Source: Cyanobacteria bacterium P01_D01_bin.156
Lineage (GTDB): Bacteria; Cyanobacteriota; Cyanobacteriia; Phormidesmidales; Phormidesmidaceae
Direction of reading: 5' to 3'
Length of the DNA stretch: 51,021 nucleotides
Assembly (NCBI GenBank): GCA_039024555.1
Contig: JBCCQQ010000047.1
Location: forward strand, 1 to 51,021
The notes beneath the pieces were generated by a model, which saw nothing but the letters and a program-made list of their open reading frames with translations, did no database searches and was not told the DNA's origin. Below are positions 7,185 through 12,053 of the stretch, one piece after another; the stretch's first letter is position 1, and every line of letters begins with the position of its first letter. Both the position numbers and the translations under genes were made by a program.

Positions 7185-7982
7185 ATGCTCGGAGCAATTC
7201 TCGGAGATGCAATTGGCTCTGCTCATCAGCGGATTAAGACACAGAGCTTTGAAATAATCACTCCAGGCAGCCACTGGACAGAGAACACTATCTTTATGAT
7301 GGCCACTGCTGATTGTCTGCTCTATGGTGGTGAGTACGAGGAAGTCTACGAGCGTTGGTACGAGTGGTATCCAAAAATAGATGGTGGATACAACAACAGT
7401 TTTAGTCGTTGGGCTGCTGAAAATTGTTCTAAGCCCTATTACAGTTGTCGCAATGATGGGGCAGTCAGAGCAATTCCTGTTGCCTATGCTTTCGACAGTC
7501 TCAAAGAGGTGATGGAAGAAGCTGAACGTTCTGCTAAGGTCAGCCATAACCATCCAGATGGTATTAAGGGGGCTCAAGCCACTGCCGCTGCTGTCTTTTT
7601 AGCTAAGACAGGCACACCAAAGGAGACCATTGCCGGATTGCTCAGTAGCATTTTTGGTTATGATCTTCAAATGCCCTATCAATCTCTGCAAGATGGTTAT
7701 CAGTACAGCACTTTGGCTGGAGATACCGTAGCGCCAGCTATTATTGCTTTTCTTGACTCTAGCGGTTTTGAGGATGCTGTGCGCAAAGCTGTTGGTCTAG
7801 GTGGAGATGCCAAAACATTGGCTGCGATTACGGCAGGTATTGCTGAAGCGTTTTATCCTAAGGTGCCACCGTCTTTACGTAAGTGGGCCTGGGCACTGCT
7901 AGATGAAGGCCAGCAGGATATGATTACGGAATTTCGTGAAGAATTTGTTCAGGATGTGGCTGCAGCAAGAGCAGCAGCATAG
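7185..7982 (+). CDS. ADP-ribosylglycohydrolase (DraG/ARH) family protein with degenerate metal site
   Basis: 'MLGAILGDAIG', 'SHNHPDGIKGA', 'FEDAVRKAVGLGGD'. TDDT appears as TENT and GD(S/T)DT as GDAKT. Confidence 0.85.
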   Translation: MLGAILGDAIGSAHQRIKTQSFEIITPGSHWTENTIFMMATADCLLYGGEYEEVYERWYEWYPKIDGGYNNSFSRWAAENCSKPYYSCRNDGAVRAIPVAYAFDSLKEVMEEAERSAKVSHNHPDGIKGAQATAAAVFLAKTGTPKETIAGLLSSIFGYDLQMPYQSLQDGYQYSTLAGDTVAPAIIAFLDSSGFEDAVRKAVGLGGDAKTLAAITAGIAEAFYPKVPPSLRKWAWALLDEGQQDMITEFREEFVQDVAAARAAA

Positions 7983-8010: not shown

Positions 8011-8610
8011 ATGCTCGATGTCAGTCAGTCATACACATTCACCAAGATTTTTGAGCTCAAGATTCCAGTTGATGAGCTTGCTGCTGAGCTGGGCTACACT
8101 CTAAATCGTTCTTGGCTGAGTTTGCCTCGTTTTCAAGGTGACCTAGATCGTATTGAAGAGCTTCGTGCCCGCATTGAAGAAATACTGCCATACGTGGATT
8201 TGGCCAGCGAAACGTCAAGGCGAGAAGTGCTGATATCGCGCGTTGTTTCAGAGTTGGTGCACTATACAAAAGCTCAGTTAAGGATTGAATATCCTCTCAA
8301 GGTTACTGCCCAGCTACAGGGGTATTTAGATTATCTTCTGAGAACCCAAACAGAGTTACTGGTTATAGAAGCTAAGCGACAAGATCTTGATTATGGGGTT
8401 ACTCAGCTGATCGCTGAAATGGTTGCTTTAGACCAGTGGGAGAAAACACCAGAGCAATCTATGTTGCTGGGTGTCATAACAACAGGAACTGTCTGGCAGT
8501 TTGCTTGGCTAAACCGCAATACGAAACATTTTGAGCAGGGTTTGGACAGCTATCGTGTTCCTGAGGACTTAGATGTTCTTATGCGCATTTTGGTAGCGGC
8601 TCTTACCTAA
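8011..8610 (+). CDS. PD-(D/E)XK nuclease-like protein (HsdR N-terminal-like)
   Basis: 'IEYPL...GYLDYLL...LVIEAK...TQLIAEM...GVITTGTVWQF'. Confidence 0.7.
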   Translation: MLDVSQSYTFTKIFELKIPVDELAAELGYTLNRSWLSLPRFQGDLDRIEELRARIEEILPYVDLASETSRREVLISRVVSELVHYTKAQLRIEYPLKVTAQLQGYLDYLLRTQTELLVIEAKRQDLDYGVTQLIAEMVALDQWEKTPEQSMLLGVITTGTVWQFAWLNRNTKHFEQGLDSYRVPEDLDVLMRILVAALT

Positions 8611-8751
8611 ATACGCATAAGATCAAGCACTGTAGACTAAGCAGAAGCGTCGCTATTTGTTTGGGAAAATCTAGAGGGCTGGCACAGGGTGTAGAAGAAA
8701 ATTAGCCTACGAAATTTCACTCAATATATTTCTTTAACAGCTACTAAGTCG

Positions 8752-9843
8752 TCACCCTTCTTCAAAAGCTAGCTGAGCATTGTAGGTGCCTACACCATCT
8801 TTTCTCTCTTTACGTATTGCTTTTCGCATGGGTTTTGACAAATATGATTTTTTCTTCAATTCCTCATCAGTTTTCTCAAGAAGCTCATCCACAATTGCAC
8901 AAGCTTCTTGATCCATAGGATCTTGTGATTGTGATAGTTTTGAAGGCTCTGGAAATAATGAGCTAGAAGAGTCTTCTAGATATAGCTTTTTCTTAATAGT
9001 TGAAGTATGGATATCTTTAAATGTATTTTTGATCTTCTGTATATGTAAATTTGTGCAGTATGGTCCATCTTTCTGACGAATAAAATACGCACCTGTATAA
9101 AGAATTCCATGCGTTTTATGTAAATTATATTCGACTAGATAGACTATTTTGTGTAGAGCAAAGTATGAAATATATTTTTGTTTGTTCAGTATATATTGAA
9201 CTAAATCAATTAAACTTTCTCCTACCTTTCCATAGACTTTTTTCTTCTTGACCCCCTGAGATTTCATAACATCTGAAATAAACTTATAGTCAGATTGCTG
9301 GTTAATAAAGCTCCGATGGAGCATAGCTCTTTGGCCTGGATGGTAAATAGGTATAAGAATCCTGCCATACCAGTTGCAGCGAGTTCTGACAGACTCCTTT
9401 AGAGTCAATTTGTGAGGTTCTATATAGGTTAGAGCCCGAAGAGCTGTGGCACCTATTGTTACAATTATTTTGGGGTCAACTACATCTATTTGCTGCTTAA
9501 GGAAAGCAGAACAGTTTGCGATCTCATTCGTTTTAGGCGTTGCATTATTACCATCCTCAGAACGAGGGTTGCAAAGAACAGCATTTGTTACAAATATTTC
9601 ACTGCGCGATATATTTGCAAACTCAAGTAAAGCCTCAAAATTATGCCCTGACTTGTCTCCGTAAAAAGGAATTCCTGTATCATCAGCACCCAAACGTCCC
9701 GGGGCTTCTCCAATAAACATAGCTTCTGCTAAAACTCTCCCAGAAGCTGGGCCAAGAATCTTCGCACTATGCTGCATACGCTCACAGTTAGTGCATGATT
9801 TGACCTGTGTACACAAAATCTCAAATGATTTTTCCTTATCCAA
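8752..9843 (-). CDS. Family-4 [4Fe-4S] uracil-DNA glycosylase fused to a C-terminal Panacea/SocA (DUF4065)-like domain
   Basis: CTNC, FIGEAPG, PFYGDKSG, TNAVLCNP and YHP in the N-terminal ~195 aa. C-terminal 'LHKIVYL...FIRQKDGPY'. TTG start with GGAG upstream. Confidence 0.85.
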   Translation of the reverse strand: MDKEKSFEILCTQVKSCTNCERMQHSAKILGPASGRVLAEAMFIGEAPGRLGADDTGIPFYGDKSGHNFEALLEFANISRSEIFVTNAVLCNPRSEDGNNATPKTNEIANCSAFLKQQIDVVDPKIIVTIGATALRALTYIEPHKLTLKESVRTRCNWYGRILIPIYHPGQRAMLHRSFINQQSDYKFISDVMKSQGVKKKKVYGKVGESLIDLVQYILNKQKYISYFALHKIVYLVEYNLHKTHGILYTGAYFIRQKDGPYCTNLHIQKIKNTFKDIHTSTIKKKLYLEDSSSSLFPEPSKLSQSQDPMDQEACAIVDELLEKTDEELKKKSYLSKPMRKAIRKERKDGVGTYNAQLAFEEG

Positions 9844-9848
9844 TGGCC

Positions 9849-10592
9849 CTACTCCCCAAATAAAAGTTCCTGCTGCATATTGAGCCTTGCAAGCGCTTCC
9901 AAAGGACCTTTATGATCTGAATAAGCCCGGACTGAGTGACATATTAACTTACCAGCATTGGTATCTGTAGCATTTGCAACGAAGTCAAGTAATTGACCTA
10001 ACCCAATAAAATTGCCCAGTGCCTTTTCAAAAAAATCATGATTTCTGTAAACAACAACTAGATCTAGTGTGCCTTTAACAGGTTGCACGAACTGCAGATA
10101 CTGAAGACATGGATTTCCTAATCGCTTAGCTAAAGAATCATAATCAGCTGATGAAATATGAATTGGATTGGTTGTTCTGAACCACCTGTCTTCGTTATTA
10201 AGAACCTTAATGATAGTCTCTAGCTGGTTATTATTAGCATCATCCCCAAAACAGATCATTCTTCTAAAGTAAGTACCCCATCTATCTTTCTTTTGATTGC
10301 CCAAACGACTTCTTCGAGAATCTACTTCAAGGTAGTACTTATAAAGTTCATCTCTTGTACGCTCTTTTACAAGACGTCTAGGAAATATGGTGTTGATCAC
10401 ATCCGATAGTGATGTACCGTTCGACTTTGGAATGAATGATCTGGGGTTGTAGGTCGAGATCCATTCCTCATCTAAGACTTTGGGATTCTCAATTGTTGTT
10501 ACTAGATTGAATAAACTATAATCTTGTTCGATAAGGATATTACATCCCTCTTTCCATGCTTCTAAGCATGTTTCTCCACTTACATGATACAT
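9849..10592 (-). CDS. Divergent thymidylate synthase-fold protein
   Basis: 'GNPCLQYLQF' (catalytic Cys), 'YRNHD' (QRSxD equivalent), 'ALGNF' (Asn177 equivalent), 'NQLETII', 'CHSVRAY'. Confidence 0.75.
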   Translation of the reverse strand: MYHVSGETCLEAWKEGCNILIEQDYSLFNLVTTIENPKVLDEEWISTYNPRSFIPKSNGTSLSDVINTIFPRRLVKERTRDELYKYYLEVDSRRSRLGNQKKDRWGTYFRRMICFGDDANNNQLETIIKVLNNEDRWFRTTNPIHISSADYDSLAKRLGNPCLQYLQFVQPVKGTLDLVVVYRNHDFFEKALGNFIGLGQLLDFVANATDTNAGKLICHSVRAYSDHKGPLEALARLNMQQELLFGE

Positions 10593-11489
10593 CTACAGCT
10601 TGTGTAAAAAACTAATCTCTCTAGCTAATAAGTCAATCTTGACATATCCCCCATTATAGCGATTTAATTTTCTGTACACTTCATATCCTTTTAGGATAGA
10701 CAATCTCCATTCGTATAGTGTTCTATCTTTAACCTCAAAACCTGAGACTAAATTTCGGATTGTTGACAAAACATCTAAATCAATTTCTCGGAGGTTTTCA
10801 AGCATGTAATGTCGTTTGGCATAGCTAAATATATAGAGAGATATAGCTTCTTCTGTAATTCGTGCTCTTGCTCCATCTTCTACTTCATCAACTTGAGGAC
10901 TAGATTTCCGCTTGATATTCAGTAGGTCACGAAGCACTGGGGACCAACCTAAAATAGCTGCATACGATAGGTGAAAGACATCATGAAATCTGTAAAGATC
11001 ATCTACATATGAGTTATCGGTCAATGTGTCGCCAATTTTATTCTCATTTCCTTCTGAATCAACTATGTAAACACTAGCTGCTTCATCATTTTGATTTTTC
11101 TCAAACCGTAATAACAGCTTGCGTGGTAATTGTTCTTCTGCAGGAAAACTTTGATCGTAGATTATGTATTCTTCTCGGCACTTAGAGCTACTAACCCAGC
11201 GATCTTCAGCTTTGTCTAGATTTTCTTTTGCAATTTCATTTAATGATAAATCCCACTTAGATGCTAAATTTGCGACGTACCACAAGACATCACCAATCTC
11301 TTCTCTTAAGTCGAGAATAAAATGTTCATAACTTTCACCATCTCGAATCCTTTTCTTAAAGCATGTGACCAGCGAGCCTAGCTCCCCAATTATCCCTAAG
11401 ATAGGTATCGTCAAAGATGCACCATCATCATTTACATCCGGAAATTGATCAGTGAGCTGAGCTTTTTTTTGATATTCATCTAGTTCCAT
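10593..11489 (-). CDS. MazG-like nucleotide pyrophosphohydrolase with C-terminal MazG-C domain
   Basis: 'YQ...LGIIGELGSL...EEIGDVLWY' MazG core and C-terminal 'DLYRFHDVFH' (DxYRxHDxxH), 'EVEDGARA'. Confidence 0.88.
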   Translation of the reverse strand: MELDEYQKKAQLTDQFPDVNDDGASLTIPILGIIGELGSLVTCFKKRIRDGESYEHFILDLREEIGDVLWYVANLASKWDLSLNEIAKENLDKAEDRWVSSSKCREEYIIYDQSFPAEEQLPRKLLLRFEKNQNDEAASVYIVDSEGNENKIGDTLTDNSYVDDLYRFHDVFHLSYAAILGWSPVLRDLLNIKRKSSPQVDEVEDGARARITEEAISLYIFSYAKRHYMLENLREIDLDVLSTIRNLVSGFEVKDRTLYEWRLSILKGYEVYRKLNRYNGGYVKIDLLAREISFLHKL

Positions 11490-11642
11490 ATGACCTTGTA
11501 CTTAAAGCAGCTAGTTCAAATTGTTGAATACGTTCTAAAGCCGCTCATTATGCAAAGCTTGTTTGGAGAATGCTTTGAAAGGTAGATTATATTAATCTAC
11601 TAATTTCCTTAGAGAAGTATGAAACATGATTTCACCACATAG

Positions 11643-11777
11643 CTAGTGGAGCGTCAAAGCTAAAAATTAGGATTGACCCAGTTATTCAGTGAGTCGTGAA
11701 TCGCATTCTTGATAAGGTCTAGCGGTAGTAAAGGCGATTCTCATCGATCCCAAATCTCAGTCTTGACGCTCCACTAG
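11643..11777. mobile_element. MITE-like element (127 bp between two CTAG copies)
   Basis: Perfect 15-bp inverted repeat CTAGTGGAGCGTCAA (11643-11657) / TTGACGCTCCACTAG (11763-11777), extending imperfectly inward (about 23/30). CTAG at both ends may be a target duplication. No coding capacity. Confidence 0.65.
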
Positions 11778-12053
11778 TAGAGTAATCTGCTCAAGTTCTC
11801 GGATTACGAAATCCTGACTGTCTTTGGCTTTAAAATCATTCGAAATGCTTACAGCATATAGTCGATCCCTAGCAGCCTGATGCGTCTGTTTACGTAAAAA
11901 GTAGATGGCAGCTTCTAAACGCTTTTCGGACAGCTTCTCTAACTGTTGAAAACCATTTTTTATTCATTATTACGCTACTTCAAAACTGCAGAGCTTAGTC
12001 AAATTATACTCAAACTAAAATCAAATGGCCTCGCTGCAATTGTGACTACTTAA

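Follow-up and report, generated by a model that had tools for sequence, protein, structure and literature searches.

The locus raises the question of why a uracil-DNA glycosylase (UDG) should be fused to a Panacea domain, and which of the neighbouring genes, if any, the fusion keeps under control. The fusion gene spans 8752..9843 on the minus strand of the window, the whole stretch of 51,021 nt analysed from Cyanobacteria bacterium P01_D01_bin.156. It has a TTG start, with GGGGAG located 8 nt 5' of it, and encodes 363 aa. The single open frame and the existence of full-length homologues (47-69% identity) rule out an annotation or frameshift artefact. A family-4-type 4Fe-4S UDG domain (aa 1-195; 9259..9843, minus strand), matched by Pfam PF03167 at aa 38-176 (E 2e-25), is followed by a Lys-rich flexible linker (aa 196-207; 9223..9258, minus strand) and by a Panacea/SocA-fold domain (aa 208-350; 8794..9222, minus strand). 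The initial annotation had read about 160 aa located after a KKKKV run, and featuring LHKIVYL and DGPY motifs, as a Panacea-like domain. The landmarks are in place (KKKKV at aa 199-203, LHKIVYL at 230-236, YFIRQKDGPY at 253-262), and the region extends from the linker end to the C-terminus at aa 363. The linker sequence is not conserved, the homologue consensus being x at the columns of the Lys run.

PF13274 (SocA_Panacea) matches aa 230-324 at 18.9 bits in the whole protein (E 0.003), and at 20.2 bits when the C-terminal part is scanned alone (E 0.001). Both scores are under the cut-off of 25.7; however, 6 of the 7 homologues scanned (24.6-51.4 bits) pass it, and the low score is a property of the window copy. 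Precomputed PF13274 matches are present in 79 of the best 120 homologues (counted by hand). Between 77 and 79 of the 79 proteins aligned share residues F228, K232, R256, Q257, G260 and P261; the G260-P261 pair is present in all, a Tyr standing for the Val of the GP(V) motif. In the ESM Atlas, where feature and structure searches count as one source, aa 203-363 have a feature score of 0.94 and TM values of 0.71-0.75 to stand-alone and HTH-Panacea proteins. The fusion proposed at the outset is borne out by homologue scores, conserved residues and Atlas similarity together, and aa ~208-350 have the Panacea fold. The association is already visible in automatic annotation, since an Atlas cluster of 350 members is annotated as UDG in 100% and as Panacea in 58%.

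The AlphaFold2 (AF2) model of the fusion, obtained from 71 sequences (pLDDT 86.7), features two domains joined by a low-confidence linker (pLDDT<50 at aa 202-207). A single-sequence model of the Panacea domain (pLDDT 49) was left out of the analysis. The helical core and the small sheet bearing the GP(V) motif, both distinctive of Panacea/SocA, are recognizable in the AF2 model (helices at aa 209-221 and 227-245, strands at 254-257 and 260-263). Among 48,161 solved chains, aa 208-350 match best DarG's C-terminal domain (7yk3_D, Z 9.0, rmsd 4.8, 131 aligned); this is a middling Z for a helical domain, and says nothing on function. Over its first half, the domain is similar to winged-helix proteins (Z about 5). 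A NCBIfam DarG profile matches aa 171-254 of the fusion at E 0.066, the Foldseek PDB matches listed for the fusion are all UDGs, and a viral library yielded a Panacea match only at an E of 0.014.

Two genes precede the fusion, in the order MazG/MazG-C, thymidylate synthase (TS)-like, UDG-Panacea, with gaps of 0 and 5 nt, respectively. That the Panacea domain belongs with both upstream genes to one inserted cassette, as had been suggested, is confirmed. The three genes are part of a low-GC insertion (8611..12053; GC 0.37-0.38 vs about 0.47), located between genes encoding a PD-(D/E)XK protein and an ureidoglycolate lyase. The segment is recognized as an insertion because these flanking genes directly adjoin in 5 of the 21 congeners. 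Their junction, empty in those 5 and filled by other inserts of about 750 bp in two genomes (G011 and G019), has the look of a hotspot for insertions. Neither flanking repeats nor an integrase were found at the cassette edges. A MITE-like element of 136 bp (11643..11778), the inverted ends of which are imperfect and 34 nt long, lies upstream of the cassette; four additional copies, 99-100% identical, are found in the genome, and diverged copies in congeners. Being about 150 nt 5' of the cassette start, the element could affect cassette expression. Genes encoding an ADP-ribosylglycohydrolase (7185-7982) and the PD-(D/E)XK protein (8011-8610) flank the cassette on one side. Both are found in congeners, yet in no homologous cassette locus, and are thus placed outside the cassette.

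In the initial annotation it was suggested that the glycosylase may serve as a sensor; a purely passive role of this kind is one which the active site argues against. The GE(A/G)PG motif A, the four Fe-S cysteines, and the pocket Asn and His of family 4 are present. The Fe-S cysteines C17, C20, C91 and C111, as well as E46, N87 and H168, are conserved in 79/79 proteins, and F60 is nearly invariant (78-79/79). The domain is close to 1l9g in structure (Z 24.4). Sensing of Ugi-type phage inhibitors is also hard to reconcile with the window enzyme, since Ugi is described as family-1-specific in PMC5449639, and the window UDG is a family-4-type Fe-S enzyme. Motif A, GEAPGRLGAD, carries one residue more than in family 4, and Ala53 takes the place of the family-4 Glu. 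The Ala is found in 159 of 161 UDG-Panacea homologues, the Glu in 7 of 7 housekeeping UDGs. In family 4, the Glu preceding the motif-A Asp keeps out 5-substituted bases; a literature search yielded no paper confirming this role. With the one-residue insertion, the spacing G49-A53-F60 equals that of G87-M91-F98 in SMUG1 (numbering as in PMC13230825). A Tyr-to-Ala change in motif A lets BdiUng accept 5-hmU, at a motif position different from that of Ala53 (PMC5449639). The C5 pocket is hence predicted to be open. Because catalytic and Fe-S residues are kept and Ala replaces the motif-A Glu, the domain probably has enzymatic activity towards 5-modified uracil and is not a passive sensor. The fusion scores below the NCBIfam cut-offs of TIGR00758 (93 vs 125.3) and NF040953 (102 vs 250); UdgX identity was rejected (TIGR03914, 75.4 vs 189.95), and so was identity with a housekeeping UDG, a separate and ordinary copy of which is present in the same genome.

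The middle gene (9849..10592, minus strand) encodes a divergent TS-fold protein of 247 aa, aligned to ThyA by HHalign at 98.9%. Residues Y108, C162, R183, D186 and N194 correspond to E. coli Y94, C146, R166, D169 and N177, and are invariant (78/78). Other ThyA signatures are missing. The phosphate pair R126/R127 is not kept, as the columns feature R/K in 41/78 proteins, then Ala/Thr and Ala/Gly; the His147 column is Leu or Trp in 78/78; the H207/Y209 equivalents are shifted and partly kept. The N-terminal 100 aa, a half that aligns poorly, contain no invariant acidic residue that could correspond to the folate-activating Glu58. Since R126/R127 and H147 are not kept and E58 is not placeable, ordinary thymidylate synthesis by this protein is judged, from its residues, unlikely. 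Asn at ThyA position 177 marks uracil substrates, and N194 accordingly points to uracil rather than cytosine as target. The host genome as a whole features no PF00303 match at E<=0.001, and for this reason probably uses ThyX.

Clustered at 50% identity, the TS-fold family (E<=1e-30) falls into about 390 groups. The only phage match is to a methanogen-virus TS (E 0.02). A viral pairing of TS and UDG is seen in Methanobacterium virus PhiF1 (L215:2734-4968), where a methanogen-type TS adjoins a gene for DnaE that carries a family-4 UDG domain at its N-terminus. A cyanobacterial protein of 500 aa with a C-terminal TS-like domain is encoded by about 25 of 400 sampled genomes (L096-L119), and two of its neighbours match a PADLOC dCTPase model.

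The first gene (10593..11489, minus strand; 298 aa) encodes a MazG pyrophosphohydrolase domain (aa 1-98), the nearest solved relatives of which include dCTP pyrophosphatase 1 and YpjD, and a MazG-C domain (aa 109-295). MazG-C carries many invariant charged residues, and no informative fold neighbour was found in the ESM Atlas; aa 104-298 have no phage match.

Homologous cassettes were surveyed in two sets of 80 top-ranking loci, taken from 372 matches in GTDB and from at least 582 in metagenomes. Because one of the search patterns was the Panacea motif, the presence of Panacea in these loci is partly selected. A TS-like gene is found in 153 of the 160 loci. In GTDB it adjoins the fusion in 80/80 loci, one of which is a deletion remnant; in metagenomes it is present in 73/80, five of the remaining loci being cut by contig ends and two, near-identical, lacking it. 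Of the 80 GTDB loci, 71 encode MazG-C, 7 have a radical SAM-SPASM gene instead, and 2 lack both. A three-gene unit is thus found in 78/80 GTDB loci, and not the two-gene operon typical of PanAT. The radical SAM-SPASM gene stands in for MazG/MazG-C beside the TS-like gene in loci with Panacea and in those with HTH-ImmA genes described below (L078, L082-L085, L087, L088, L233, L200). Hosts include Pseudomonadota, Bacteroidota, Verrucomicrobiota, Bacillota, Chloroflexota and others, and the cassette is horizontally mobile. The full-length fusion was found neither in 40 relatives nor in the viral contigs searched, and none of 368 matched plasmid records covers 80% of it. In Bradyrhizobium and other Alphaproteobacteria, a sub-lineage carries a hydrophobic 240-aa gene, devoid of Pfam matches, 3' of the fusion (L041:9122-9835, L048:9096-9818, L182:3863-4108), and a double-length MazG gene on the opposite strand; the hydrophobic product is a possible membrane effector.

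A reverse search was carried out with the TS profile on 1,600 genomes evenly drawn from four phyla (E<=1e-15, centres excluded). The 13 matches obtained, plus 9 of 21 plasmid matches and one viral contig, gave 23 TS-like loci. Twelve of the 13 genome loci are of an ImmA type; the thirteenth is of the Panacea type and lacks ImmA. The one Panacea-type locus among the 23 encodes TS, radical SAM and UDG-Panacea. In all 22 loci without the fusion, ImmA, or ImmA followed by a C1 peptidase, is directly upstream of TS. HTH is present in 21 of the 22, and a small carrier-protein-like gene in most. The small gene in these cassettes (L200-L213, L226-L232) is acyl-carrier-like, and is often accompanied by a holo-ACP synthase gene. 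Each of the 22 also encodes an uracil-base reader, either a SMUG-like UDG lacking Panacea (8 loci) or a PF18723 protein (14 loci), PF18723 being named after part of a 5-hmdU DNA kinase, a writer in phages. MazG-C is found in 17, radical SAM instead in one, neither in 4. In 8/8 SMUG-type loci TS lies in the switch operon, and the UDG, with MazG in 7, on the opposite strand. The SMUG-like UDG has a small residue at the Ala53-type spacing too, and is a separate lineage (HHalign probability of 3.6% to the Fe-S UDG of the fusion). In turn, ImmA is directly upstream of TS in none of the 160 Panacea loci, and weak HTH-ImmA matches are found nearby in two, in neither case beside TS. From the contents of both locus types, the core may be defined as a TS-like gene, an uracil-base reader and one control module. 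Both ImmA and Panacea are hub antitoxin domains in NetFlax (PMC10440598). On the TS tree, loci of the Panacea type and loci of the ImmA type cluster apart, and their mutual exclusion therefore rests on few independent swaps. Neither the root of the tree nor its count of Panacea gains can be used: this is a quick tree, in which the MazG-C group was reduced to 25 rows, and four of the outgroup rows, from cyanobacteria, correspond to the wrong (N-terminal) part of their proteins.

The gene pairs were compared in co-evolution tests on 107 and 93 non-redundant cassettes. Distance-based partial correlations are about 0.03 for Panacea and TS, 0.44-0.45 for Panacea and the MazG N-domain, and 0.56 for TS and MazG-C. 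The first value is not in favour of a cognate Panacea-TS pair. The second may be compositional, as it groups low-GC hosts together. Branch-length covariation and mutual information gave no signal for any pair, no Panacea-partner pair exceeding a z of 5, and tree conflicts in the same cassettes identified no Panacea partner.

These data are best accommodated, with a probability of roughly 40%, by viewing the TS-like protein as a putative toxic writer of C5-modified uracil, UDG-Panacea as its DarG-like antidote and eraser, and the Panacea domain as the gate. The initial annotation had left open whether the held toxin is MazG-C or the TS-like protein. The latter fits, and is likely the guarded component, because all 22 TS loci without the fusion carry ImmA directly upstream and another uracil-base reader. 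We regard it as a probable toxic writer since no other gene is invariably linked to a control module, since TS is what is lost or broken in three decayed cases (L034, L180/L182, L204), where the reader gene is intact, and since it is transcribed apart from the UDG in SMUG-type loci. Cys162 would attack an uracil nucleotide, in partnership with MazG-C or a radical SAM enzyme, and the modified nucleotide would end up in DNA. In uninfected cells the UDG, through its predicted open C5 pocket, would remove the modified base, and the MazG domain would clear the modified triphosphate from the pool. Panacea would either bind the writer, as the DarG C-terminal domain binds DarT, or sense a phage cue and disable the guard. 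Upon infection, the modified base would build up in replicating DNA, which would be blocked or fragmented.

An antidote that is also a gate fits the layout of DarG, in which the N-terminal enzyme is the eraser and sequestration falls to the C-terminal domain (PMC7003065). It fits as well the view of Panacea as a sensor advanced by Ernits et al.: in multidomain PanA proteins the other domain neutralises, and Panacea is hypothesised to sense (PMC10440598). These roles are the reverse of those first assigned to the fusion, in which the UDG was to sense and Panacea to neutralise. The writer/eraser reading is weakened by the near-zero Panacea-TS correlation, the few independent swaps, the middling DarG match, the modest and unmatched neighbour enrichment described below, and the single effect listed for the validated analogue DS-4. 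In addition, PF18723, a phage writer-type domain, suits an eraser role poorly, and the TS-like protein lacks R126/R127, H147 and an identifiable E58. An extended version, improbable as a whole, would make the TS-like protein the first TS-fold toxin, a folate-independent enzyme that lacks the phosphate clamp for free dUMP and introduces a new 5-substituent on uracil, possibly within DNA, the group being supplied by MazG-C or radical SAM. The glycosylase-Panacea antidote would then reproduce from unrelated enzymes the eraser-plus-gate design of DarG, and the invariant RQKDGP hairpin would be the trigger-sensing surface of Panacea.

A rather unlikely alternative, which the same cassette anatomy fits, assigns the killing to the glycosylase. 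The TS-like and MazG-C proteins would mark new DNA with a Trojan nucleotide, the UDG would produce abasic sites that kill phage DNA, and Panacea would hold UDG or TS back until infection. In other loci the third gene is exchanged for PF18723, which is a domain of a 5-hmdU-activating enzyme. Lambda DNA is unmodified. The validated DS-4 system, made of TS, dNMP kinase and PF18723, acts on lambda, the one effect listed being a -log EOP of 0.93 with smaller plaques (PMC13092281). Brig1 and Brig2, which have the UDG fold, act as effectors against phages (PMC11078745; bioRxiv 2025.10.29.685425). However, the reader gene is intact where TS is lost, and is found outside the switch operon in SMUG-type loci, and the enzyme-plus-Panacea layout is antitoxin-like, as in DarG.

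Decidedly improbable is a restriction aimed at phages with uracil or 5-modified uracil already in their DNA, in which the UDG would excise the phage base as Brig2 does (bioRxiv 2025.10.29.685425), while MazG and the TS-like protein would drain or trap precursors. The predicted open C5 pocket is suited to this task, and a TS-like protein devoid of several canonical residues could work as a trap, but the constant placement of TS under an ImmA switch or beside Panacea is left unexplained, and Brig1 and Brig2 are described as single genes.

Strongly disfavoured is the MazG version of the initial annotation, that of a sensing UDG and a Panacea domain physically holding MazG/MazG-C as a classical toxin. 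Stand-alone Panacea neutralises toxins directly (PMC10440598), and the partial correlation between Panacea and the MazG N-domain favours the pair; Panacea swaps partners easily, and the idea can therefore survive the loss of MazG from the radical SAM loci. However, the correlation is not reproduced on branch lengths, and the intact UDG active site is at odds with mere sensing. MazG-C is replaced by radical SAM in 7 of the 80 GTDB loci with the Panacea motif R256-Q257-G260-P261 unchanged, and is missing or replaced in 5 of the 22 HTH-ImmA loci.

Least plausible of all is an operon for accessory house-cleaning of pyrimidines or for repair, uninvolved in conflict, in which Panacea would be a DNA-binding or dimerisation add-on: the three enzymes all have metabolic or repair folds, the first half of Panacea is winged-helix-like, the cassette genes match no PADLOC model and 117 of 148 nearest neighbours lack a PADLOC match, but the spread is very patchy (no full-length match in the 40 relatives, about 1% of sampled genomes), the cassette is a low-GC insertion that swaps modules, and a housekeeping UDG is already in the genome.

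The cassette was compared to known systems. No PADLOC 2.0.0 family matches the three genes at E<=1. Among the nearest non-cassette ORFs, 31/148 match PADLOC models vs 6/63 controls (counted by hand), but neighbours were chosen mechanically, spurious ORFs included, and controls are shorter, cyanobacterial and unmatched. Matches include R-M subunits, SduA and PDC candidates, and also generic helicases and HTH proteins; as support for a defence role the enrichment is modest. The words thymidylate, uracil, MazG and glycosylase are absent from PMC8832971 (3 supplements), and thymidylate and glycosylase from the main text of PMC10440598. Literature searches for MazG-C with TS and UDG, and for Panacea with glycosylase or DarG, yielded neither a UDG-Panacea fusion nor such a cassette; Burroughs 2015 and Iyer 2013, outside their scope, may show it.

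UdgA, a family-4 UDG, shares with the fusion GE(A/G)PG, the four Fe-S cysteines, Phe, Asn and His. The fusion differs for the longer motif A with SMUG1 spacing, the Glu to Ala change, the C-terminal Panacea domain and scores below NCBIfam cut-offs. Brig1 and Brig2 share the UDG fold, the extra room predicted near the pyrimidine C5 and a mobile AT-rich setting. They are single, highly divergent genes, whereas UDG-Panacea is a 29-31% identical family-4-type enzyme in an obligate cassette. Panacea toxin-antitoxin pairs (PanA/SocA, PF13274) have in common with the fusion the fold, the LxK...GP signature and the C-terminal position, as in HTH-, ZBD- and PAD1-Panacea proteins; in the cassette, Panacea is fused to an enzyme in a three-gene unit, and GPY replaces GPV.

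The domain pool of the cassette is that of the predicted nucleotide-modification conflict systems, drawn in Fig. 6F of the DefensePredictor paper, citing Burroughs 2015, with MazG/MazG-C, TS, UDG and aGPT-Pplase (PMC13092281). In the same paper MazG, MazG-C and UDG are among predicted, unvalidated systems, Table S4 counts among its putative defence genes a SMUG-like UDG that bears the motif seen in the HTH-ImmA cassettes, and the main text does not mention Panacea. The UDG of Table S4 belongs to the SMUG-like lineage, the window UDG to the Fe-S lineage. The TS of DS-4, 361 aa long, reads as a more canonical type than the cassette protein.

If the preferred writer/eraser reading is correct, the cassette would introduce a new writer/eraser chemistry in bacterial immunity, and provide a function for the orphan MazG-C domain and for the TS-fold family. 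The fusion would offer a clean test of Panacea sensing vs neutralising, because the enzyme and Panacea halves are separately mutable, and a family-4-type glycosylase accepting 5-modified uracils could be a useful reagent. A close counterpart is DarTG2, the antidote of which similarly joins an N-terminal remover of base modifications to a C-terminal domain of similar fold, and is encoded right after the putative writer. Membership in DarTG was rejected, as the cassette proteins are TS-fold, MazG/MazG-C and UDG, and neither DarT nor a macrodomain is encoded; moreover, the putative writer is TS-fold, a third gene is present, and removal would be by a glycosylase, with destruction of the base. The window cassette is real and conserved, and appears to be a variant of the predicted nucleotide-modification conflict systems, one that, as presently interpreted, works like DarTG.
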